From positions 59,460,001 through 59,524,000 of the forward strand of contig NC_086108.1 of assembly GCF_963921235.1 (NCBI RefSeq): a stretch of 64,000 bases of DNA, read 5' to 3'. This document shows positions 7,426 through 63,140 of this stretch, piece by piece. The position numbers and the translations under genes are program-made. Numbering within the stretch: position 1 is the first letter of the stretch; every line of letters starts with the position of its first letter. Below the pieces are notes generated by a model, which made no database searches, was not told the origin of the DNA, and saw only the letters and a program-made list of their open reading frames with translations. Source of the DNA: Mobula hypostoma. Taxonomy: Eukaryota.

Positions 7426-9065
7426 AATTTGCTGATGATACCATATTGATTGGCCTTAACTTAAATAATAACGAGGCAGCCTATAGAGAAGTCACCATCA
7501 GCTGGACACAGTGGTGTCGAGAAAATAATCTCTCCCTCAATGTCACAAAAACAAAGGAGCTGGTTGTGGACTACAGGAGGAATGGGGAGAGGCAAACCCC
7601 TACTGACATCAATCGATCTGGGCTTGAGCGGGTGAACAGCTTTGAGTTCCATGGCATACACCTCACCAAGGATCTCACTTGGTCTGTACATACTGGCTGT
7701 GTGGTGAGAAAAGCACAACAGCTCCTCTTTCACTTCAGACAGTTGAAGAAGTTTGACATGAGTCCCAAATATTAAGGACTTTCTACAGGGGCACAATTGA
7801 GAGCATCCTGACTGGCTGCATCATTGCCTGGTGATGTGAACGAATACTGAAGAAATAGGAATCCAGAGTCACCCACAGTACATGAAAACACCATCGAGTC
7901 AGCATCAGAGTTATGGACTGAACTGGATGCTGGCATAAATGTTCCTATATGGTTTTATACACTGCATGAGTGCTTGAAGATTCTGTGTTTACTGTAATGT
8001 ATAGTTTGACAATATTTAATCAGTGTTTACCTTTGAAACAATTTTGCTAATTAAAATGCTATCTAATTGTTTTTAATTAAACAACCACAGAGAACTGGAA
8101 TACTAGTTGGATTAGCATGATGGCTATGATTAAAATTCACAGCAATTGCAAGATAGGGCTGTAAGCATCACATATGTAAGTTTACTTAATTTTTTTTATG
8201 AATGGCAGCTAGTAACTTAAACTGAAACATAATTTAAATACAGAAGGGAATAGAAATTCATGGGTAAGAAATCATGGAAGTTAACTTGTGAAAAACTTAA
8301 GCATTTTGTAATGGAAATAGAAGAAAATTATAAGCTCAGTTAGGAAAATGAATATTGAACAGTGCAAAGTATGATAAAGATTATGGAGTAGGTATTGTTC
8401 TTACCTATTGCAAAACTAAATTTGAAATTGGTAGCAGAGGTCAAAAATTAGGTTGGACAATTTCAGGAATAAATTTCAGTAAAATTATAGCCCAAAGAGA
8501 AGTCTGAATCATGTATCAGCAATCAATGTTTAATGCAATACATTGATGTGATTTTCTGCACTGAAATTTCTACATAGGAATGTAATAACTGCAAAATGTA
8601 ATAGACAGAGGTCATGGTGTGTATCATCTACCACCCTGATAAGCTTTTAATACAAAATAGTTGCTTTTGAATAATCATAGGAATCAATCCTTCACAATTA
8701 ATCTACAATAAATCCAGACGCAATTTAAAAAGGAACTGTGAAGAAGATCTTTGTATCTAGATCACCAGTTCCTTCCAAAATTACCGCACTTATCATATCG
8801 TGTCTCAAATTACTCACACGCTGATGCCCTAAGTGTTAATTCTGAGAGAAATCTATATAAATTGTATTTGAATGAAATAATATCTTCTGGGTCCTTTCTC
8901 TCTATAGATTGTCCATTTGCTCTCTGAAATATCATTTTCACAAACTGTATTAAATTTCCCCCATCAACTTCCCACACACATTCCAAGTGTTGACCATGCT
9001 CTTTTGTTTAAACATTTGAAATGAAGAGTTAACCCATCTGTTATTTATACTATTTTGGATATTTA

Positions 9066-12000
9066 AAGTTCAATGTTCAAAGTTCAAATTAAGTTTATTA
9101 TCAAAGTACATAAATATCACCAAATACAACCTTGAGATTCATTTTCTTGTGGGCACCCACAGTAAATCCAAGAAGCACAATAGAATCAATGAAACACCAC
9201 CTTCCACGAGATGGACAAACAACCTATTTGCAAAAGACAACAAACTCTGCAAAAACAAAAAGAGAAAAAAATAATGAAAGGATGTAAAAAATAACTGGTA
9301 ATAGATTCTGTAATTCTAAATTAAGCCCTGCAGGAAAGGAAAAATCTTTCATGTTGTTATATTGACGACCAAAAAGAATTTGACCCTGTCCCACACTTAT
9401 AAGGTCTCAATATATATAAACTACACCCAATACTTGTGAAATTCCTACAACATCTGATGAAGCATCGGCGTAATATAATCACCTTTTCTATTAACAACCA
9501 AAAAAGAACAATCATTGTTAACAAAATAAACCGAGGGTTTTTCCAGGGTGATTCTCACCGTCCACTATGCTTTTGTTTAGCTTTAAATCCGCTCTCTAAT
9601 TTACTGAATTGGATGAAAGGAGTATCAGATCAGAAATAACCGAATGAATTATATCTTGACATACGTTCTATACATGGACGATTTGAAATTATACACTCCT
9701 TCATCAGTAAAGCTAAAGCAACTAATTCAAATAGTGGAACTATTTTCTAAAGGTATAAACATGAACTTTGGACTAGATAAGTGCAGGACTTTAAAGAGAA
9801 AGAAAGGTGCAATAGAGCTAGCAGAATATAAGACAGAGCAGCAGGATACAATACAACTGATGGATGAATATGAAACATCCAAGTATCTGGAATATTAACA
9901 AGCAAAGAAAGTAGATCATAGTGTGATAAAGGGAAATCTTACAACAAATTTACTTCAAGGTTTAAGGAAATCTGCCAAACAGAGCTCAACAGTAAAAATA
10001 TAACAAAGGTAACAAACACTTTCACTATACCCATAATAATGTATTCTTTTGGCAAAATATCTTGGTCCAAAACCGATCTGGAAAATTTACAAAGAAAAGT
10101 AAGTAATGAAATGACAAATCTTAGAAAACACTATGTACTGTACACGCAAATGCTCTTAGATTAACATTACGAGGACGGAAGGAGAAGAAGGATTAACAGA
10201 CATAAACATTTGCACAATAGTTAGATATATTTTCCTAAGGATATATTTTCATCAATGAAAACAGGGTTCAGCTCTCCATGCGAGTATATGCAATTCTGAT
10301 AAGAAGTACACACCACTAAATTTACATGAAAGCACAACCCAGAAAAAAGAAGAAATTATTACTACAGAAGAGAAGTTTAATTGATGGCAGAGCATGACCC
10401 TCCATGGAAGACATCCCCACAATCTGGGCAAACTAGAGGTCGAACAGGAAGTGTCAAATGCCTGGCTCAGAATTGGAGAACTCTTCTCAGAAACAAAGGG
10501 GTTCCTGGCAATACAGGATCAGGTGGGTACATAAAAACACATAAGGAAAGATCAACAAATTCAAGACGATAAATGCAGAAGATGCCAAGAGAAACCAGTA
10601 ACAATCCAATACGTTACAAGATTCAACAACAGTTTAATTCAATCTGATTACTTCACAGGCACAATCCAGTGGCAAACATTTTTCACCAATACAAGCCTCA
10701 TCCAGATTTAGAGTCAGAGTCCAACATATCACATTACGACTGATCCATTACCACAGATAGGACAATCCATCATAACCACCCGGAAATAATATTACAGGAT
10801 AAACAAACGAGAACAACTTACTTAATAAGTAGACCCATTCTAAACACACATAACATACAAAAATTAATAAGTGAAAACACCAGAAATATGCTGAATTAAA
10901 AGAGGAAATTGAAAGGCTATGAAACATGAGCAGGTTATACATTGTCCAAATAGCATTATCTACACCTGGTACCATCCCAAAGACACAATAGCATTAAACA
11001 ATTAGACCTACAGAGCAATGTTCATGCAAATCTCCAGAAAGCCACTACTAGAATGGTCTTTGAGTTTCAATGAATTGAGAAATGTGTGTACTTGGCTATG
11101 CCCGTACCTTAGGTTTTACCTGCTTGAGCTGAAAAAAATTAAAAATATAATACTACTATTACTACTAATAATACATAAGTAAGCAATAAATATCAAGAAC
11201 ATAACATGAAGAGTCTTTGAAAGTGAATCCATAGGTTGTGGGAACAGTTCAGTAATGGAACGTGTGAAGTTGAGTGAAGTTATCCCCTCTGGTTCAAGAG
11301 CCTGATGGTTGAGGGGTAATAACTGTTCCTGAATCTGGTGTGTGGGTTCTGGGTACCTTCTTCCTGATGGCAGCATGGCCTAGATGGTGAGGCTCCTTGA
11401 TGAATGATATTACTTTCCTGCTTTCCTTTATGTAGATGTGTTTAAAGGTGTGATGGCTTTACCTGTGATAGACTGGTCTGCTTTTCCATTCAAGGCAATT
11501 GGTTTTCCATACCAGGCTATGAAACAGCCAGTCAATATACTCTCTATTACACATCTATAGGAATTTGTCAAAGTTCTAGATGACATGCCAACTCTTCACA
11601 AACGTCTGAGAAAGTAGAAGCACAGCCGTGCTTTCTTTGCAATGGCACTTATGTGCTGGACCCAGGTCAGATCCTCTGAAATGATAACACTGAGGAATTT
11701 ACTGTTGCTGACTCAGGACTTTGATTCCCCAGGACTGGCTCATGAACCTCTGGTTTACTCCTCCTGAAGTCAATAATCAGCTCCTTGGTCTTGCTGATAT
11801 TGCATGAGAGGTTGTTGCTGTGACACCACTCAGTCAGAAGTTTAGTCTTCCTCCTATATGCTGATTCATCACCACTGTTAATTAGGCCTACAACAGTGGT
11901 GCCATCAGCAAACTTAAGTATGGCATTGGAGCTGTGCTTAGCCTCATAGTCATAAGTATAAAGCGAGTAGAGCACTGGTCTAGGCACACACATTTGTGAG

Positions 12001-12480
12001 GCACCTACACTGTTGAGATTGCGGAGGAGATATTGTTCCCAATCCAAACAGACTGGGGTCTGCTAGTGAGTAAATTGAGGATCCAGTTGCACAAGGAGGA
12101 TTTGAGGCCAAGGTCTTGAAGGCTTTCAATTCATTTTGGGGGGGTTAAAGTATTGAATGTGAGCTGTTGACGATGAAGAGCATCCTAATGTATGTATCTT
12201 CACTGTCCAGGTGTTCCAGTGTTGAGTGAAAAGCCAATGACATAGCATCTGTTGTGATCTGTTGTGATAGTGGTTTCACTTTGTATGAGGTAATAGCATT
12301 CAAGCCCTGCCACAGCTGTCAAGCATCCTTCAGTGATTCAAGTTTGGTCTGGAAATGCCAATTCACGCATTATTTGGCTTACAGAATCTGTACCTGTACC
12401 TCTTGCACTTTGCTTGGTCACCAGAACAAAATGCTACTGACCTGGTCCTCAGCAGATTGCGGGTCTCATGTTCATCCAAG
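9066..12480 (-). mobile_element. Rex1/Babar LINE (3' tail 9066-9276, body 11150-12480) split by an R4/Dong insertion
   Basis: Tail pieces on both sides join into the same Rex 3' UTR seen at 62900-63140. ORF 11667-12047 reads LYSLYTYD...KFADGTTVVGLI...SKTKELIIDFRR. Confidence 0.85.
9277..11140 (+). mobile_element. R4/Dong-clade non-LTR retrotransposon (RT, zinc knuckle, restriction-like endonuclease), 5'-truncated and decayed
   Basis: Motifs KGCK..L.IDSV, IDDQKEFDPVPH, INRGFFQGDS..PLCFCLALNPLS, LYMDDLKLY, MNFGLDKC, QDQV, DKCRRCQEKPVTIQ, RHNPVANIFHQ, TDRTIHHNHPEIIL, KYAELKEEIERL. Confidence 0.88.
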
Positions 12481-16570: not shown

Positions 16571-17961
16571 AACAAAGCTGCAAAAACTCCTCTTGTAAAT
16601 GTAAATGTTTGATTATTCCTTTATATTGCACATAGGTAGTAAACTCAGGCAAAACAGTAGAAACAGATTTTCCAAACTGGCACAAACCTAGTACATAATT
16701 TTGTGATGCTTCAGTTCTGCCTGTCACCTGGCATGGATGAGCCCTGACAATGAATGCAACTCTGAAACTAGCTACTTTTCGACAGTCAAGCTACTTTACA
16801 TATTTTAAGTAACTGTCAGGCAACCTGATGGAAAGATATGGCCATTTCCAAGTGTGGTGGAAAAACTATTACAGCTGGCTTGGCAGGCTTCATTGTGCCT
16901 GATAAATCAAATTTATATTCAGTGTTGAAAATAAATATCTTGGCAATTGATTATATTTTTGGTCCTTTTTCCCTCCCTCCAGCATTAAACCATTGATGCA
17001 TACTGACAGGCATCTCTGTGCTCCATTTTGCTATTAATGCATTAGATGGCATTGAAAAGTTGCGACTGTACTATCCAGGATTTTGAGTTATTAATTTTAT
17101 TAACACAAATGCATCTTTTTCTGTTTCCCTCTATAGAGAGTTCAAATGCAGATTTTAAAAAGGTTCCTCAGGAATATGAAAAAGCTTTCAAAATTGTAAT
17201 TAAATAACAAGAGCAAAATTATACTTAAAACTTAAGGAAAAACTGCTTTACATTAATGACTTTACAATTTATGTAACCAAATAGCTCCCACTGATCAGGT
17301 ATACTTTTATAATTAAAATTATTTGAGCAATTATTAAGGTATTTTATGGTATTTAATTGATTATTTCATATACAGTGGATTCTGGCTGAAAGGTTAATCA
17401 GGGCAGTTGCTTATTTGGGCCAACTCTTAATGAACATGAACTAATCCAGAAAATAGCCAGCATTCACTTAATTTATTTGAGACACTTTACTTGATCAGGA
17501 GACTGTTGCTAAACAGTCTCAAATTAAAATCGGTCTCATGAACTTGTGCAGCCATTAGACACTATGCTTGGAGAGAATGTTTTTTAAATAGCATCACTTG
17601 CACATTTTTGTGGTTAAAAAACTGTGATTTTTTTTACAGATAGTTAGTGAGAATAAAGCAGTAAGACAATTTAGAATTGATTTGCTCACTGCACTTTTCA
17701 AGCATTCAGGCTTAGAGACGCTAGAAACGGCTGGTAATGAAAATAAAACCATTTCACTACTTCAACAAATGAGAAACTATGAAGAATTTGAAGGTTTCAA
17801 CAACTATCTTGAATGTTGAGATGAAAGTGAAGATTTGAAGGATGGAATTGTCGATAGCGTTGTATGAAGGCAGTGCATTATCTGCACTAGTTGTCTGTGC
17901 CAATTTTGTTCATTTACAGTCAATCAAAAGAACACGGTAGCGTGTTGGTTGTCTGTTGTGT

Positions 17962-23822: not shown

Positions 23823-24950
23823 CATCATCATCGTTATGTGCCTTGTCGTATGATGTGGGTGATCATGGTCTTATCCATGACCATAATTTTTCTTGCTTTG
23901 CCATTGCCATTTTCTGGACAGTGTCTTTACAAAATGGATTTAAAATGGTGCTGGTGAACCTCAGCGACTTCTGGCTGGAGGCTAATGAAACAAAGAAAAC
24001 AACTAAATGCTTCGTTCATCACACTTTTTCGAGCAAATGTTCATCTCAAAAAAATAGTCTGTAACTTCCCTTTGGACTTCAAGGCAATTTGATGTGGCAG
24101 AACCAAGGCAAGGTGAGGTGGTGGGCCTGTTACTGAGCACGAGGAAGACCTGAGGTTCGAACATTTTATGTGCCATGTTGAACCTGAAAGGTCGGTTACA
24201 GGCCAAATTGAAGTGGCGAGGTCCAAGCACCAGAGCTTATTGAATTGACTGAACCTGATACTCGGACAGAGACTTAAGCACAGGGCTGAATCAGACAGGT
24301 CAGTTTACAGGCCGAATTGAGGCGGTGAGGTCCAGACACCAGAGCAGATTGGGACGGAGATTTAAGTGCAGGGACAAATCGGAAAGGACGGATGCAGGCC
24401 GAGGTGGTGGGGTCCAGACCCCAGACTGTATGGAGGCAATTGACCCCGATGTTTGGATGTTGATTTAGGTGCCGAACAAGATTGAAAAGGTCAGGGTGTT
24501 GGTGTCTGAGGCAAGGGACAGGTCAGTTCAGATTGCTGCTCCACGACTTGGTTTGTGCTGACCTATGGACTCTCTTTGCGACCTTCAGTTCAGAACGCTA
24601 CTTGCTTGCAGTTATCGTTTGCATGATGTGTTCATTTTCTCTGTACATTGGGTGTCCAACTGTCTTTTTTTAATATGGGTTCTTTTGGATTTCTTTGTTT
24701 CATGGCTACCTGGTAAGAGACTAATCTCAAGGTTTTATAATTTATGCATACTTTGATAATAAATGTACTTTAAACTTTGAACTTTGGACCCTGGCGTCAG
24801 TGGTCACATAACCAGGACTTGTGATGTGTACCAGCTGCTCACACCACCATTCACTATCTGCTCCCATATCTTCATGTGACCTTGATTGGGGGGCTAAGTA
24901 GGTGCTACCACTTCTTCAAGGGTGACATGCAGTCTATCGGAGGGAGGGCC
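23823..24950 (-). mobile_element. RTE-mobilised SINE-like element with (GAT)n tail, split by an insertion at 23941-24786
   Basis: (CAT)n at 23823 and terminal stem-loop ATCATGGTC...GACCATAAT. Body resumes at 24787. Confidence 0.55.
23941..24786 (+). mobile_element. Non-autonomous element with a Rex1-type 3' tail
   Basis: Starts AAAATGGTGC and ends CATACTTTGATAATAAATGTA(CTTTGAA)n like the tails at 41900 and 63110. No RT motifs inside. Confidence 0.65.
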
Positions 24951-26670: not shown

Positions 26671-27304
26671 CGTGAAATGAATCAGAAACAGGTTTATTAT
26701 CACTGGCATGTGACATGAAATTTGTTAACTTCACAGCAGCAGTTCAATGCAATACGTAATCTAGCAGAGAAAGAAATAATAATAATAAATAATCAAGTAA
26801 ATCAATTTCATACAAACATATATTGAATAGATTAAAAAAACGTGCAAAAACAGAAATACTGTATTTTTTTTTAAAAAGTGAGGTAGTGTCCAAAGATTCA
26901 ATGTCCATTTAGCAATTGGATGGCAGAGAGGAAGAAACTGTTTCTGAATCACCGAGTGTGAGCCTTCAGGCTTCTGTACCTCCTACCTGATAGTAACTGT
27001 GAGAAAAAGGCATGCCCTGGGCGCTGGAGGTCCTTAATAATGGACGCTGCCTTTCTGAGACATGGCTCCCTAAAGATGTCCTGGGTATTTTGTAGGCTAG
27101 TACCCAAGATGGAGATGACTAGATTTACAACCTTCTGCAGCTTCTTTTGGTCCTGTGCAGTAGCCCCACCATACCAGACAGTGTTGCAGTCTGTCAGAAT
27201 GCTTAACACAGTACAACTAGAGAAGTTTTTGAGTGTATTTGTTGACATGCCAAATCTCTTCAAACTCCTAATGAAGTATAGCCACTGTCTTGCCTTCTTT
27301 ATAA

Positions 27305-30300
27305 GATAGAGAGGTGTAAAATGAGAGTAGAAGCAAGAAGTAGTAAGGTGAAAAGTAAAAGTGGCAGGCCGGGAAATCCAGGGCAAAAATCGAAAAGGGC
27401 CAATTTTCAACATAATTGTATAAGGGCTAAGAGTGTTGTAAAAGCAAGCCTGAAGGTTTTGTGTGTCAATGCAAGGAGCATTCGTAACAAGGTGGATGAA
27501 TTAAAAGTGCAGATTATTATTAATGAATATGATATAGTTGGGATCACAGAGACATGACTCCAGGGTGACCTAGGATGGGAGCTCAACATTCAGGGATATT
27601 CAATATTCAGGAGGGATAGACATGAAAGAAAAGGAGGTGGGGTAGCTTTGCTGGTTAGAGAGGAGAATAACGCAATAGAAAGGAAGGACATTAGCCTGGG
27701 GGATGTGCAATTGATATGGGTAGAGCTACATAACACTAAGGGGCAGAAAATGCTGGTGGGAGTTGTGTACAGGCCACCTAACAGTAGTAGTGAGGTTGGG
27801 GATGGCATTAAACAGGAAATTAGAAATGCGTGCAATAAAGGAACAGCAGTTATAATGGGTGACTTCAATCTACATATAGATTGGGTGAACCGAATTGGTA
27901 AGGGTGCTGAGGAAGAGGATTTCTTGGAATGTATGTGGGATGGTTTTTTGAACCAACATGTCGAGGAACCAACTAGAGAGCAGGCCATTCTAGACTGGGT
28001 ATTGAGCAATGAGGAAGGGTTAATTAGCAATCTTGTCATGAGAGGCCCCTTGGGTAAGAGTGACCATAATATGGTGGAATTCTTCATTAAGATGGAGAGT
28101 GACATAGTTACTTCAGAAACAAAGGTTTGAACTTAAAGAAGGGTAACTTTGAAGGTATGAGACGTGAATTAGCTAAGATAGACTGGCAAATGATACTTAA
28201 AGGGCTGACGGTGAATATGCAATGGCAAGCATTTAAACATTGTATGAATGAACTACAACAATTGTTCATCCCAGTTTGGCTAAAGAATAGACCAGGGAAG
28301 GTGACTGACAAGGGAAATTAGGGATAGTATCAATTCCAAAGAAGAAAAATACAAATTAGCCAGAAAAAGTGGCTCACCTGAGGACTGGGAGAAATTAAGA
28401 GTCCAGCAGAGGAAGACAAAGGGCTTAATTAGGAAAGGGAAAAAAGAGTATGAGAGAAAACTGGCAGGGAACATAAAAACTGACTGTAAAAGCTTTTATA
28501 AATATGTGAAAAGAAAAATATAGGTTAAGACAAATGTAGGTCCCTTACAGTCAGAAACAGGTGAATTGATCATGGGGAACAAGGACATGGCAGACCAACT
28601 GAATAACTACTTTGGTTCTGTCTTCACTAAGGAGGACATAAATAATCTTCCGGAAATAGTAGGGGACAGAGGGTCTAGTGAGATGGAGGAAGTGAGGGAA
28701 ATACATGTTAGTAGGGAAGTGATGTTAGGTAAATTGAAGGGATTAAAGGCAGATAAATCCCCAGGGCCAGATGGTCTACATCCCAGAGTGCTTAAGGAAG
28801 TAGCCCAAGAAATAGTGGATGCATTAGTGATAATTTTTCAAAACTCTTTGGATTCTGGACTAGTTCCTGAGGATTGGAGGGTGGCTAATGTAACCCCGCT
28901 TTTTAAAAAAGGAAGGAGAGAGAAACCGGGAAATTATAGACTGGTTAGCCTAACATCAGTAGTGGGGAAAATGTTAGAGTCAGTTATCAAAGATGTGATA
29001 ATAGCACATTTGGAAAGCGGTGAAATCATCAGACAAAGTCAGCATGGATTTGTGAAAGGAAAATCATGTCTGACGAATCTCATAGAATTTTTTGAGGATG
29101 TAACTAGTAGAGTGGATAGGGGAGAACCAGTGGATGTGGTATATTTGGATTTTCAAAAGGCTTTTGACAAGGTCCCACACAGAAGATTAGTGTGCAAACT
29201 TAAAGCACACGGTATTGGGAGTAAGGTATTGGTGTGGGTGGAGAATTGGTTAGCAGACAGGAAGCGAAGAGTGGGAAATAAATGGGACCTTTTCAGAATG
29301 GCAGGCGGTGACTAGTGGGGTACCGCAAGGCTCAGTGCTGGGACCCCAGTTGTTTACAATATATATTAATGACTTAGACGAGGGAATTAAATGCAGCATC
29401 TCCAAGTTTGCGGATGACGCGAAGCTAGGCGGCAGTGTTAGCTGTGAGGAGGATGCTAAGAGGATGCAGGGTGACTTGGATAGGTTAGGTGAGAGGGCAA
29501 ATTCATGGCAGATGCAATTTAATGTGGATAAATGTGAGGTTATCCACTTTGGTGGCAAAAATAGGAAAACAGATTATTATCTGAATGGTGGCCGATTAGG
29601 AAAAGGGGAGGTGCAACGAGACCTGGGTGTCATTATACACCTGTCATTGAAAGTGGGCATGCAGGTACAGCAGGTGGAGAAAAAAGGCGAATGGTATGCT
29701 GGCATTTATAGCAAGAGAATTCGAGTACAGGAGCAGGGAGGTACTACTGCAGTTGTACAAGGCCTTGGTGAGACCACACCTGGAGTATTGTGTGCAGTTT
29801 TGGTCCCCTAATCTGAGGAAAGACATCTTTGCCATAGAGGGAGTACAAAGAAGGTTCACCAGATTGATTCCTGGGATGGCAGGTCTTTCATATAATGAAA
29901 GACTGGATCGATTAGGCTTATACTCGCTGGAATTTAGAAGATTGAGGGGGGATCTTATTGAATGTATAAAATCCTAAAGGGATTGGACAGGCTAGATGCA
30001 GGAAGATTGTTCCCGATGTTGGGGAAGTCCAGAATGAGGGGTCACAGTTTGAGGATAAAGGGGAAGCCTTTTAGGACAGAGATGAGGAAAAAGTTCTTCA
30101 CACAGAGAGTGGTGAATCTGTGGAATTCTCTGCCACAGGAAACAGTTGAGGCCAGTTCATTGACTATATTTAAGAGGGAGTTAGATATGGCCCTTGTGGC
30201 TAAAGGGATCAGGGGTATGGAGAGAAGGCAGGTACAGGGTTCTGAGTTGGATGATCAGCCATGATCATACTGAATGGCGGTGCAGGCTCAAAGGGCCGAA

Positions 30301-35154: not shown

Positions 35155-36010
35155 ACAAGTAAATTTATTATCAAAGTATGTGTATGTCACCATATACAAC
35201 ACTGAGATTCATTATCTTGTGGGCTTCCTCAATAACTCCAATAAATCGGTCACAGACCGTACTAACAGGGCAGACAACCAGTGTGCAAGAGCAACAAAAT
35301 GCGCAAATGCGTCAAGATCTTGGAAGACCTAGCCTGGTCCCAACATATCAATACAACTATAAAAGAGGCAAGACAGCGGCTATGTCTCACTAGGAGTTTG
35401 AAGACATTTGGTGATCAGTTGATCAACTAAAACACTCAAAAGTTTCTATAGATGTACTATGGAGAGTACTATGACAGGCTGCATTACTACCTGGTGTTGG
35501 AGGGTGGGGCTATTGCACAGGACCGAAAGAGGCTGCAGAAAGTTAAGTTAGTCGGCTCCATCTTCACTACAAGCCTCCGTGGTACCCAAGACATCATCAA
35601 GGAGTGGTGCCTCAGAAAGGTAACACTCATAATTAAGCGCTCCCATCACCCAGGGCATACCCTTTTTCTCACTGTTACTATTAGGAAGCAGCAGGTACCA
35701 GAAGCCTGAAGGCACACACTCAGCAATTCAGGAATAGCTTCTTCCCCTCTGCCACCTGATTTCTGAATGAACATTGAACCCGTGAACACTACTTCACTTT
35801 TTAAAATATATATTATTTCTATTTTTGCACTTTTTAATATATTCAATATACATACATGCTTACTGTAATTTATTTATTTATTCTTTCTATATTATCATAT
35901 ATTGCATTCTACTGCTACTGTCAAGTTAACAACTTTCACTTGCTGGTGACAATAAACCTGATTCTGATTCTGAAATACAAAAGAAAAAAAAAAGTAATAA
36001 TAATAATAAC
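35155..36010 (-). mobile_element. Rex1 3' tail (35155-35310, 35973-36010) split by another Rex copy
   Basis: AAATTTATTATCAAAGTA...TGAGATTCATT, same tail type as 9066-9276. Resumes AAATACAAAAGAAA...(TAA)n. Confidence 0.75.
35311..35972 (+). mobile_element. Rex1/Babar 3' fragment with (TTCTGA)n tail
   Basis: KARQRL, AQDRKRLQKV, HPGH motifs and AATAAACCTGATTCTGATTCTG end. Confidence 0.85.
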
Positions 36011-36090
36011 AAACTCCTATGGATATACTTTCTTCAAAGAAAACAGGAATCAGCACTCCACACAAGCATATGCAATTCTGATAATAATAC
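36011..36090 (+). mobile_element. Second short fragment of the R4/Dong element
   Basis: Aligns by eye to 10232-10309 with about 13 mismatches in about 74 nt. Confidence 0.8.
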
Positions 36091-38495
36091 TGAATAAAAT
36101 AAAAATAATCATAATAATAAATAAACAAGTAAATGAATTGCGTATCTAGAACAGATGCAAAAAACATGCAAAAATAGAAATACTGTATATTTTAAAAAAA
36201 GTGAGGTAGTGTCCAAAGATTCAATGTCCATTTAGGAATTGGATGGCAGAGGGGAAGAAGCTGTTCCTGAATCGCTGAGTGTGTGCCTTCAGGCTTCTGT
36301 ACCTCCTGCCTGATGGTAACAGTGAGAAAAGGGCATGCCCTGGGTGCTGGAGGTCCTTAATAATGGACGCTGCCTTTCTGAGACACCGCTTCCTAAAGAT
36401 GTCCTGGGTACTGTGTAGGCTGGTACCCAAGATGGAGCTGACTAGATTTACAACCTGCTGCAGCTTTCGGTCCTGTGTAGAAGCCCCTCCATACCAGACA
36501 GTGATGCAGCCTGTCAGAATGCTCAACATGGTACAACTATAGAAGTTTTTGAGTGTATTCATTGACATGCCAAATCTCTTCAAATTCCTAACAAAGTATA
36601 GCCGCTGTCTTGCTTTCTTTATAACTACATCAATATTTTGGGACCAGGTTAGATCCTCAGAGATCTTGACATCTAGGAACTTGAAGCTGCTCACTCTCTC
36701 CACTTCTGATCCCTCTGAGGATTGGTATGTGTTCCTTCATCTTGCCCTTCCTGAAGTCCACAATCAGCTCTTTCATCTTACTGACGTTAAGTGCCAGGTT
36801 GTTGCTGTGGCACCACTCCACTAGCTGACATATCTCACTCCTGTACGACCTCTCGTCACCACCTGAGATTCTATCAACAATGGTTGTATGGCCAGCAAAT
36901 TTATAGATGGTATTTGAGCTATGCGTAGCCACACGGTCATGTGTATGTAGAGAGTAGAGCAGTGGGCTAAGTACACACCCCTGAGGTGCGCCAGTGTTGA
37001 TCGTCAGCGAGGAGGATATGTTATCACCAATCCGCACATTGTGGTCTTCCAGTTAGGAAGTCAAGGATCCAATTGCAGAGGGAGGTACAGAGACCCAGGT
37101 AACTTCTCCATCAGGATTGTGGGAATGATGATATTAAATGCTGAGCTATAGCTGATGAACAGCATCCTGACGTTATGTTGTCCAGGTGGTCTAAAGCTGT
37201 GTGGAAAGCCATTGAGGCTGCATCTGCCGTTGACCTATTATGGTGATAGGCAAATTGTAATGGGTCCAGGTCCCTGCTGAGGCAGGAGTTCAGTCTAGTC
37301 ATTACTAACCTCTCAAAGCATTTCATCACTGTCGATATGAGTGCTACTGGGCGATAGTCATTAAGGCAGCTCACATATTCTTCTTAGGCACTGGTTTAAT
37401 TGTTACCTTTTTGAAGTAAGTGGGAACTTCCAACTGTAACAGTGAGAGGTTGAAAATGTCCTTGAATACTCCCGCTAGTTGGTTGGCACAGATTTTCAGA
37501 GCCTTACTAGGTACTCCATCGTGACCTTCCGGCTTGTGAGGGTTCACTCTCTTTAAAGACAGTCTAACATCGGCCTCTGAGATGGGGATCACAGGGTCAT
37601 CGTGTGTAGCAGGGATCTTCACAACTGTAGTTGTGCTCTCCCTTTCAAAGCGGGCATAGAAGGCGTTGAGTTCATCTGGTAGTGAAGCATCACTGCCATT
37701 CATGCTACTGGGTTTCGCTTTGTAGGAAGTGATGTCTTGCAGACCCTGCCGTGCATTGGTTGCTGTGCATCCAATGTCGCCTCCAAACTAGTTCAAAGGA
37801 AGAGAATCCAAAATGTGAGTCTTACTGGCCTGCACGTATTGCGTGATGACATATGCAATTCCCATATTTTACATGTAACCTGTAATTAATTTTTTAAACA
37901 AACATTGCTTAATCAAAGATATATATATAAGATTACTCAAATATAACTGAAATATTAAATCCATAAGACACAATTGTTTTTGACTTTTTATAGAGTCCAT
38001 GACAACCATGGTGCACTTATTCAAATCCACAGGTGATTCCATGAACGTGGCCCAGCCACTGACTTGACGCAATCCCATAGCCACTCCTCTGCATTCCACG
38101 ACCACCTCTTTGTTGTCCTAATCTCTGGACCCTCTGCTTGTATGCAGGTAGGAGAAGGGCAGCCAAGTGATCAGATCTCCCAAAATGCAGTCTGGACAAG
38201 GAACGGTAGGCAAACCTTGTCTTCGTACAGCAGTGAACTAGTATGTTGGGACCTCTAGTGCTATGGGTTATCTGCTGTTGGTAATTGGGCAGGGATTTCT
38301 TCAAAGAAGCCTGATTGAAATCCTTGATTTTGATCTGAAATGTGTCAGGGTAGGCTGTTTCTTGTTTGAAGACGGCATCATGCAGTATCTCAAGTGCTTG
38401 ATTATAGTTGGCTACTGGTGGTATGTAAACTGCTGTAAGGATTACGGAGGAGAATTCGCTTGGCATTTGATCATTAGATGTTCAAGGTCAGGGGA
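36091..38495 (-). mobile_element. Rex1/Babar LINE from APE C-terminus to 3' UTR
   Basis: [82 protein letters not shown]. Confidence 0.95.
37797..37970 (-). mobile_element. Partial copy of the 517-755 solo-LTR-like element inside Rex1
   Basis: Shared blocks TTTTACAT.TA..CTG.AAT, GCTTAATCAAA and ACTGAAATATTAAAT. Confidence 0.6.
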
Positions 38496-41329: not shown

Positions 41330-41937
41330 AGTATCCTGGCCAGTTGAATCAGATCCTACTCTGGAAACACCAATGTCCAGCAATGGAAAACTCTACAGAA
41401 AGTGGTGGATACACCTCAGTTCATTGTAGGCAATGCTCTGCCTACTACTGGGCACATAATGGGATGAATGGCTTAATCCTGCTCCTGTGTCTTATGGTCT
41501 TACTGACAAGGAGCACTGTCACAAGATAGGCACCCCCTCAACCAGGCCACACGCTTTTCTTGCTACCGCCATTGAGCAAGAGGTACAGGAGTCTTAGGTC
41601 CAACACCACCAGGTTCAGGAACAATTATTGCCCTACAACTATCAGGCTCCTGAACTAGAATGGATGACATCACTCACCTCACTTCCAAACTGATTCCTCA
41701 ATCTACAGACTCACTTTCAGGGACTCTGCAATTCATGTTCTTCATCTTATTTTCTTGCACAATTTGTCTTTTGCACATTGGATGCCTTACAGTCATTGTT
41801 TATGCACTGTTTTTTCATAAGTTGTATTGTATTTCTTTATATTTCTGTAAATGCCGGCAAGAAAATAAATGGCAAGGTGGTACATAGTGACATAGCCATA
41901 CTTTGATAATACATTTACTTTGAATTTGACTTTGAAT
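41330..41937 (+). mobile_element. Rex1 3' fragment (with a short CR1 tail at about 41460-41500)
   Basis: QPGHTLFLLPPLSKRYRSLRSNTTRFRN and tail CATACTTTGATAATACATTTACTTTGAA. Confidence 0.75.
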
Positions 41938-43246: not shown

Positions 43247-45021
43247 AATTAGATTCTGATTAATTAGGCCATCAGTTATTTGGTGCAGCCGCTTATTTAG
43301 GATAAATCTTAAACAAAAAGTATTTGAGGGAGTAGCCTGGATTCCCTTAATTTATTTGGAGCACTGTTCCATTTAATTGGGTAGGAGACTGTTGCTGAGC
43401 AGTTTCTAACTAGTGTCAGTCATATGCAGTAGCATGACTGTTAGACAATACATCATGCTTAGAGCAAATAGTTTTGAAATAGCGCCAGTTGTGTGTGTTT
43501 GTGTTCAAAAACAGCTATTTTTTTTTGTCACTGATAGTTGGAGAGAAATAACCAAAAAGCCAATTCAGAACTGTTTTGCTTACTGCAGTTTCAAGCATTT
43601 AGGCTTGGAGATGTGATGAACAGCTGTGAGTGAAAATGAAATGATTTCACTACTTCAGTGAATTAGGAACTAAGAAGAATTTGAAGGTAGTGAAAAATGC
43701 TTTAAATGTTACAGTGAAAATAAGATTTGGAAGAATCATTCATCAACATGTTATAGGAAAGCAGACTATTATCTGCACTGGGGTCTGCGCTGATTATGTT
43801 CATTTACAATCAAAATAACGCGATGCAAATGAATTCTTCCACCCATAACTATTAGGAAATTATACACAGTATTATAGTACTGTAGTAGTATTGGTAGTGT
43901 TCTGATCTGTTTCGTATTTCATTCAAATACGTTATTTGTTACTCAGCTTGTCTTTTTTTATAACTTTTTAACTATTTCCGTGAAGCTTCAGCTAATTGGG
44001 GCAGCCATTTAATTGGGTCAAAATGCGCTGAACCCGATATGTTCAAAGTTCAAAGTACATTTATTATCAAAGAATATGTAAGTCATACAACCTTGAGAAT
44101 TGTTTGCTTACAGGTAGCCACAAAGCAAGAAACCCAGAAGAACCCAACTAAAGAAGAAAAAAATAAAAATAAAAGACCACCACCTGATACACAAGAAAAA
44201 GAACAAAAAACACATCGTGCAAACAATTGAAACAAACAACAACAATCTGAACCAAAAATTAAATCCTCAGACCCAAATCCCGGAGCAGGCCAAAGCCTCG
44301 CTTATCAGTTCATCATATTAGTAGGCATGGAGTACAACAACTGGGGCAGTCTTCATAGCCTCAGCGTCATAGAGGAACAGGAGAGACCATCGCAGAGAAT
44401 GAACAAAATCCCAACACCCTGTCTTTGCAGTCTATCTGGGCCAGCGAATGGCTCTGGTGCACTGGAGAGTGGAGAGAACATCGTGGAGAGCAAGCAAAAT
44501 CAGCCTGTGCCTCTGATCTGGGCCGGTGTTTAAATTGTCTAGGCATCGCGTCATACCTCACACTAGGACCCAGGCACCACTGCTGCCAAAGGCTCCAGGC
44601 CTAGACCATACCTCCCAGCGACTTGCTCCAAGCCCAGCCTGAAGCTGCTCTCAAGCTCTTCAAACCAGCTCGGTACCCAGAGCAATCCAACCTTACACAT
44701 GAGCCAGTTGTGCAGGTACTGAATCTCCTCTGCCCTGGCCCTGATTTCTCCTTTTGGTGCCCAGAGGGAGCCAACCTTGCTCCCAGGCCAGCTGTACGGG
44801 CATTGGAACTCCAACAGCATCGATTCGCAACACACCGCCCCAACAATTCCCCTGAACTCGCCTCGACATTCACCACTTCGCTATTTGTGGCGATAATTCA
44901 GCACAATTTATCTCAGAAAAGGTATTTTTAGTTATGTTTTTAGTCATATTTTTTAGCTTTGTGACTACCAGAAAGCTGTCACACACATTTGGTAGTGCCA
45001 TCTTAACCGAAGTCCACTTTA
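43247..45021 (+). mobile_element. Second Tigger/pogo-type MITE copy, right end split by an insertion at 44042-45005
   Basis: 43250-44041 is colinear with 17373-17943 plus 19162-19395. TTAACCGAAGTCCACTTTA at 45003-45021 resembles the right TIR. Confidence 0.75.
44042..45005 (-). mobile_element. Non-autonomous element with a Rex1-type tail
   Basis: Minus-strand head TAAGATGGCAC, tail (TTCAAAG)n TACATTTATTATCAAAG on the plus strand, no RT motifs. Confidence 0.65.
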
Positions 45022-61844: not shown

Positions 61845-63140
61845 GTATATACAATTTAATTGGCTCGCCACACAGCTGTGGAACATCTGGACAGTGAAGA
61901 TGCCTACATTGGAATGTTCTTTATTGACTACAGCTCAGCATTTAACACTATCTTCCCCTTAAAATTAATCAATGAGCTCCAAGACCTAGGCCTCAATACT
62001 TCCTTGTGTAGCTGGATCCTCAATTCCTTGATTGCAGACCTCAGTCAGTTTGTATTGGCAGCATCATCTCCTCCACAATCACCATCAGCACAGTAAACCA
62101 CAAGCTGTGAGCTTCGCCCTTGCTCTACATGCTCTATAGATATGACTGTGAGGCTAAGTACAGCTCCAAAGCCATAACTGAGTATGTTGATGACACCATG
62201 TTTGTCGGCCAAAACAAAGGTCGTGATGAATCAACATATAGGAGTGAGATTGATAATCTGAGTGGTACCACAACAACAAACGTTTGCTCAATGTCGGCAA
62301 AACCTACGAGCCAGTTATTGAGTATAGGAGGAGAAAATCGAGGGTCCATAAGCCAGTGCTCATTAGGGATCACAGGTGGAGAGAGTCATCAACTTTAAAT
62401 TCCTGGGCGTTATCATATTGGAGGATTGGTCCTGGGACCAGCACGTAAATGCCATTTCGCAGAAGGCATGGCAGTGCCTTTACATTATTAAAAGTTTACT
62501 CAAATTCAGAATGTCGTCTAAAACTTTGACGAACTTTTGTAGATACACAGTGGAGTTTATCCTGACTGGTTGTATTTCAGCTTGGTATGGAAATACTAGG
62601 ACCAAAGAACAGGAAAGTTTACAAGAAGTGTAGGATTTAGCCCAGGTCATCACAGGAAAAGGACTTCTGACCATTGAGCATATCTACAGAGGGCTCTGCC
62701 ACAAGAAGTTAACATCCATTATCAAGGACCCCCACCATCCAGACCATGCTCTCTTCTTGCTGCTACCTTTGGGAAGGACGTACAGCAGGCTTAGGTCCCA
62801 CAACACTAGGTTCAGGAGAGCTATTACCCTTCAACCACCAGGTTCCTGATCTAGTGTGGACATCTTCACACACCACAACACTGATGGTTGAAACAACCTA
62901 TGAACTCGCTTTCAATGACAGTACAAACCATGTTCTCAGGATTATTTATTACTATTATTTGCTTATTTTTGTTTTTGCACAGATTGTCTTCTTTTGCATA
63001 CTGGTTGCTTGTTAGCCCTTGCATGTAGCTTTCCATTGATTCTCTTGTACTCCATTGTTCTATTGTGAATGCCTGTAAGAAAATGAGTAAAATTTGGTTA
63101 CATATATGCACTTTGATAATAAATTCATGTTGAACTTTGT
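61845..63140 (+). mobile_element. Rex1/Babar LINE, 5'-truncated and decayed
   Basis: [38 protein letters not shown], tail CTTTGATAATAAATT...GAACTTTG. Confidence 0.9.

Follow-up and report, generated by a model that had tools for sequence, protein, structure and literature searches.

The window, the whole 64,000-nucleotide stretch of Mobula hypostoma DNA that was analysed, carries at 9277..11145 (+) a 5'-truncated, decayed non-LTR retrotransposon, probably of the R4/Dong type, with a restriction-like endonuclease (RLE) and a natural 3' end. It lies antisense to its host, a Rex1-like LINE on the minus strand. The 3'-terminal ~200 nt of this LINE (subfamily A) occupy 9068..9276 (-) and, read on the plus strand, end in an A-run and TAAT that lead up to the insertion point. 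The remainder of the host, comprising 3' UTR, an ORF end with an ALKBH8_N-type segment and an RT core, is found at 11175..12121 (-), and a degenerate TAA/TAC tract (11146..11174, +) marks the 3' junction of the insert. An earlier, sequence-only reading of this DNA had drawn the element from 9277 to 11175; its start is confirmed, but the element proper ends near 11145, and what lies beyond is tract.

Six translated pieces of 9277-11063 (+) are collinear with intact RT+RLE proteins, with tblastn E values down to 1e-86, and this ordered alignment bears out the earlier description of an RLE-type element with an RT, a C-x2-C knuckle, an RHN motif and an eroded PD-like nuclease. The copy starts inside the RT and is thus 5' truncated; what is left of that domain runs through YMDD to the domain end (9277..9943, +) and is 42-56% identical to intact relatives, the first RT piece reaching 49-56%. 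The zinc-knuckle remnant (10574..10624, +; 46-54% identity in the knuckle piece) was aligned with the relatives P0008 and P0012. It keeps its C-x2-C at 10574-10585, while the His of the CCHC motif has become Tyr and its last Cys Phe. Placed by tblastn and alignment, RHN (10657-10665) and the eroded restriction-like endonuclease share 10654..11067 (+), with 38-48% identity in the nuclease piece. The nuclease retains K-x-x-K-Y; PE stands in place of its PD, and a frame break coincides with the second acidic position. The relatives carry an RT, a CCHC knuckle and a C-terminal restriction-like nuclease in this order within one ORF, with intact motifs; the ray copy has kept the order, its motifs are eroded, and the aligned parts hold at least five frame changes and nine in-frame stops. 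Among Pfam models only RVT_1 matched the pieces (E 3e-5, under the curated cutoff), and the nuclease pieces drew zero Pfam matches. R4/Dong-clade elements begin with a SANT/Myb-like domain without zinc fingers, a region that is absent from this RT-truncated copy.

Downstream of the ORF lies a 3' UTR of about 80 nt (11068..11145, +) that ends in an A-rich run and is followed by the TAC/TAA tract; in relatives TAA begins 92-228 nt (median 110) past the ORF match. Within it, at 11088..11107 (+), a predicted hairpin consists of a stem, a UU opposite C, and a G-C-closed upper stem. The same build with different letters recurs in four other 3' UTR families, the other carriers being the L001, L002, L004 and L008 3' UTRs, so that it is found in 5/13 R4/Dong-like UTR families and in 31 of the 48 members of the largest. 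In none of these five families does it turn up in more than 2.3% of shuffles, a figure for a pattern that was defined after viewing these same sequences. Taken alone, the window's RLE 3' UTR is not unusually stable (z -1.04), and Rfam gave no match in 8800-11600. The recurrence of the hairpin supports the right junction as the natural 3' end of the element, and its shared form makes it a candidate protein-recognition element.

The sequences that the sequence-only reading had quoted at the two junctions are present, and its claim that the flanks rejoin into a single Rex1-like LINE is upheld by a collinear copy at 61977-63139 and by contigs of four sequencing runs. The terminal segment at 9068..9276 is 72-81% identical to copies at 62953-63139, 35157-35244 and 41813-41936, and the flanks at 9078-9273, 11271-11346 and 11504-12121 are collinear with 63139-62953, 62872-62797 and 62593-61977 of the uninterrupted copy. 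The empty-site joint, 9271 to 11271, occurs in 3, 3, 2 and 3 contigs of the four runs, in a comparison that covered 4 of 21 runs and skipped 37 letters at the tract. ALKBH8_N (PF09004) matches 11302-11670 (-) with 28.5 bits against a cutoff of 21; it exceeds its cutoff in two of the three Rex1-like loci scanned, and RVT_1 stays under its cutoff in the copy near 36 kb. We take an ALKBH8_N-type segment after the RT to be a mark of Rex1, and the label of the host follows from this style of motif and the Rex1 richness of rays rather than from a reference alignment. In both its RT with a following ALKBH8_N-type segment and its abundance in rays, which rank among the vertebrates with the highest Rex1 coverage, the host resembles the Rex1/Babar LINEs of the CR1 group (PMC13343379). 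It differs in the internal antisense TAA tract that the 3' UTRs of at least two subfamilies carry here, a feature unmentioned in the accessible part of that paper.

The TAA tract sits on the antisense strand of the minus-strand host, and the insert is antisense to Rex1. The sequence-only reading had placed the insertion in a (TAA)n tail; a TAA-type tract in a Rex1-like 3' UTR is indeed what was struck, but this tract is internal, ~200 nt from the host terminus near 9068, it is antisense, and its right-hand part is mostly TAC. Antisense TAA-like tracts are present in the 3' UTRs of several Rex1-like subfamilies in the window (14508, 26774, 36106 and 62946). Two of these are empty, one in an uninterrupted subfamily-A-like UTR (62946..62960, -) and the other in a subfamily-B UTR (26774..26791, +). 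Eleven Rex1-like ORF-end pieces were counted within the window. Two further segments, 24723-24789 and 44039-44122, have the terminal ~80 nt of Rex1-A in common and diverge beyond it; they may be short elements dependent on Rex1.

TAA-type repeats lie at both junctions of the insert in degenerate form (9277/11146). The right tract (11148-11174) consists of five TAC, three TAA and one TAT, the left junction has fewer than two full TAA units, and Tandem Repeats Finder made no call for a TAA tract at the insert. A target-site duplication is unreadable inside the repeat. The TAC units are probably an element-made or decayed tail, by analogy with the GAT that precedes AAT in a family from insect guts. 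Copies of the largest metagenome family (L006-L077) have (GAT)n directly after their 3' end and (AAT)n after that, so that their tail, like the TAC/TAA tract of the window, has two parts.

The RLE family has left another remnant at 36015..36087 (+), 73 bp long and without its 3' end. It is 83.6% identical to 10233-10305 (E 2e-16), and tblastn with P0008 matched it at 68% over 22 aa. On its left is a (TAA)5 tract (35995..36012, +) that belongs to another subfamily-A Rex1-like UTR, so that the remnant occupies, in a different Rex1-like copy, the TAA tract homologous to the 9277 target. The subfamily-A terminal part of this copy is found at 35157-35310, past a nested plus-strand Rex1 (about 35311-35973). 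On its right the remnant is fused to a subfamily-B Rex1-like LINE (36088..36713, -) that has ALKBH8_N and RVT_1 matches and its own antisense TAA tract, and whose UTR is 87.9% identical to the empty copy at 26774-27303; we infer that a later deletion made this fusion. Since its 5' breakpoint, about 10230, is unlike that at 9277, the second remnant is probably an independent insertion. The stretch 35157-36713 as a whole is a four-part nest of a Rex1-A end (-), a Rex1 (+), the 73-bp RLE remnant and a subfamily-B Rex1 that lacks its terminus. When six intact relatives were searched against the window by tblastn, no other convincing family member came up.

The probable assignment to R4/Dong is based on architecture, junctions and tree neighbours. 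In a FastTree phylogeny the copy grouped (SH-like 98) with eleven RT+RLE proteins, two from psyllids and nine unnamed, in a clade of 12 rows that lies among insect proteins; the tree had 66 rows, 7 of 73 having been dropped, mostly as short, and held no named Dong, R4 or Rex6 and no R2, NeSL or HERO outgroup. The placement of the RT that the sequence-only reading had proposed is thus among insect RT+RLE proteins rather than beside named R4-clade references, which were absent from the tree. Psyllids, lepidopterans and other insects supplied the best named matches, among which there is no fish protein; intact insect-type relatives are plentiful, and the Atlas clusters close to P0008 are arthropod and cnidarian. 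The nearest named relatives come from insects and not from fish, most of the nearest rows are unnamed, and horizontal transfer into rays may have occurred.

The intact ray ORF that had been proposed as a search target was not found in searches that are weak evidence of absence. With P0004, one of six pieces, as query, the longer proteins gave at best 54% identity across the greater part of its length, and 60% across one third in a Mobula EFHC2 isoform; nothing was found at near length, and the best full-length match in the representative library had 50%. The C-terminal ~57 residues of P0033 (Mobula birostris EFHC2 isoform X2) belong to the RLE family at 60% identity, possibly through exonisation or as an annotation artefact. 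Viral contigs yielded no protein relative of the family and no match to the Rex1-UTR motif. An R4/Dong-type protein labelled Streptomyces narbonensis (P0118) sits on a 3,992-bp contig and is probably eukaryotic contamination. Elsewhere in the window, 28548-29577 (+) holds a decayed RT, 24-28% identical to R4-type proteins, that probably belongs to an RTE-type LINE.

Several described elements resemble this family. Dong of Bombyx mori, DongAg, DongBg and the ostracod Dong1/2 (PMC7998251, PMC3812793) are alike in RT, C-terminal restriction-like nuclease and TAA-type junctions, and the species of our closest named proteins include Spodoptera frugiperda and Sitophilus oryzae, both in the R4/Dong-like set of PMC7998251. 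The ray copy differs from Dong in its cartilaginous fish host, in being dead and without an N-terminal region, in its short tract inside another LINE and in the TAC-rich right tract. Rex6 of teleosts is likewise a vertebrate element of the R4 family with RT and RLE (PMC6274825); the statement of the sequence-only reading that it targets related trinucleotide repeats found no confirmation in the literature consulted. R2 (PDB 9nl3, 9dou, 9nl2, 8gh6; PMC13580325) is alike in RT, CCHC knuckle, restriction-like nuclease and priming directed by the 3' UTR, but is only a distant relative, matching P0012 in the RT region only (E 1e-27 to 1e-12), and its target is 28S rDNA. In a literature search that ran without Repbase and the majority of subscription journals, neither Dong/R4 in rays nor the use of Rex1 UTRs as targets by Dong was the subject of any paper, and the accessible parts of PMC3747384, PMC6274825, PMC3636483, PMC5381603 and PMC13580325 contain nothing on either.

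The family is multi-copy, and its host is far more so. In run X1 the unique flank had a summed depth of 12.7, the 20 bins of the RLE body ranged over 528-87,502 (median near 16,700), and four bins of the Rex1-like flanks over 475,000-1,990,000; summed depth is not true copy number and serves as an order-of-magnitude guide. On that scale RLE copies number roughly a thousand or more, host UTRs outnumber them tens of times over, and therefore most Rex1-like UTRs are empty. The very high depth of the Rex1-like UTRs also agrees with the earlier claim that Rex1 is abundant enough to supply many targets. The longest pieces listed from other RLE copies diverge by about 15-18%. Because depth at 10527 and at 8950-9040 is single-copy in runs carrying three organism labels, the 9277 insertion appears to be shared and old, which suggests that it predates the split of those labels.

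(TAA)n is reported as the target of Dong in insects, mollusks and cnidarians (PMC7998251, PMC3812793), and the junctions of metagenomic relatives agree. We collected 80 metagenome loci, of which 62 reach the ORF end and 47 were usable after short flanks and three duplicates were dropped; most belong to one family (48 of the 62 UTRs), and the loci do not amount to independent families. A perfect (TAA)3 follows the ORF in 39/47 of them, against 8.8% in background, and of 53 visible 5' boundaries, 36 have TAATAATAA with no more than one mismatch (background 5.4%). These strict counts supersede those of a looser triplet pattern (40/47 on the 3' side, 34/53 on the 5' side). Outer 3' flanks were seldom alike, with two similar pairs among 40. 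What these relatives target is accordingly the repeat, and not any single host element. Some insect-gut copies (downstream flanks L014, L022 and L065; L027 and L049) adjoin other R4-like or SINE-like pieces, as labelled by eye.

The reading we favour, at a probability of roughly 0.7, is that the family retained the known TAA targeting of Dong, that Rex1 UTRs supply many such tracts, and that the locus records ordinary nesting of a dead copy and not a new partnership. The 9277 copy would then be old, fixed and decaying, and the family multi-copy in the ray genome. By analogy with R2 and Dong, the restriction-like nuclease would nick a TAA repeat and start target-primed reverse transcription, with the 3' UTR positioning the RNA and, at 9277, reverse transcription halting inside the RT region. 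The target would be the short antisense-strand TAA tract within the 3' UTR of the very abundant Rex1-like LINEs, and its strand would dictate the antisense orientation of the insert. The element would be reading the repeat, not Rex1, and Rex1 UTRs would be struck through their sizeable share of TAA tracts. How sizeable depends on definition. Nine perfect (TAA)3 tracts lie in the window, six of them away from RLE remnants, and one of these six is in a Rex1 UTR; among tracts within one mismatch of (TAA)4, four of six are in Rex1 UTRs, two of the four beside the second remnant. The chance of the second remnant landing in Rex1 accordingly ranges from roughly 0.17 to 0.67, and this remnant is the sole independent trial, because the 9277 element is itself the ascertainment case. 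One independent hit would be expected about as readily under proportional use as under preference, and shows neither.

Two features sit uneasily with proportional use. The two remnants of the window both abut one and the same tract of the subfamily-A Rex1 UTR, as they would under a real preference, and the insect-gut loci have long tracts where that at 9277 is short and degenerate. The ray family might instead read a longer target, an A-run plus TAA plus adjacent Rex1 bases, and have specialised on this renewable site. Two of two remnants at one tract with different 5' breakpoints would accord with such specialisation, short tracts might need the extra context, and other site-specific LINEs are known to insert into transposons (PMC4640811), where the use of multicopy sequences, transposons included, is stated to be a survival strategy. 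We nevertheless consider a true Rex1-UTR preference unlikely: only one hit is independent of ascertainment, with a Rex1 share of tracts anywhere from 1/6 to 4/6; the metagenome relatives have no common outer flank; a rough estimate from depth leaves room for an insert in no more than a few percent of Rex1-A UTRs; and the tracts at 26774 and 62946 are empty. An elaborated history, in which an arthropod-like R4/Dong family, perhaps acquired from an invertebrate, specialised in rays on the Rex1 antisense TAA tract while Rex1 expansion renewed the target and sometimes carried the insert as a passenger, would make it a vertebrate LINE parasitic on a second LINE, and appears more doubtful still.

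Two other accounts were weighed. An active Rex1 could have copied an RLE insert along with itself, so that many loci descend from few Rex1-RLE chimeras; the last ~200 nt of Rex1 were left in place, making a chimera in principle copyable, and the left host subfamily is common to both remnants. Such passengers should share their breakpoints, yet these differ (9277 and about 10230), the bin 9223-9313 has a depth of 128,347 and its neighbour one of just 5,415, and among the contigs listed the 9277 junction occurs only in this copy's own, all of which makes this origin highly improbable. To a loss of specificity in rays, with the junction TAA/TAC arising partly as a tail of the element itself and partly by chance in a UTR rich in A, we give the least credence of all. 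The mostly TAC right tract and the fewer than two TAA units on the left would suit it, and some RLE families are not site-specific (PMC3636483), but (TAA)5 lies at the 5' junction of the second remnant, where an element-made tail cannot lie, and such TAA tracts occupy only about 2% of window 52-mers.

Under the favoured reading of retained TAA targeting, neither the dead element nor its manner of nesting is of a new kind. The microsatellite-targeting system that an intact relative was expected to provide already exists as Dong, with many intact relatives of insect type and no intact one found from rays. As a tool the ray copy adds little, being dead when intact TAA-targeting relatives exist in insects; the hairpin common to several 3' UTR families is perhaps a more useful lead on how R4/Dong proteins recognise RNA. 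What the locus does add is a probably undescribed, multi-copy, decayed Dong-type family in rays, together with the origin of its targets. Were a true preference for Rex1 UTRs to hold, the family would be a vertebrate case in which one LINE, itself site-specific, owes its landing site to another, and it would offer a test of how microsatellite specificity narrows.
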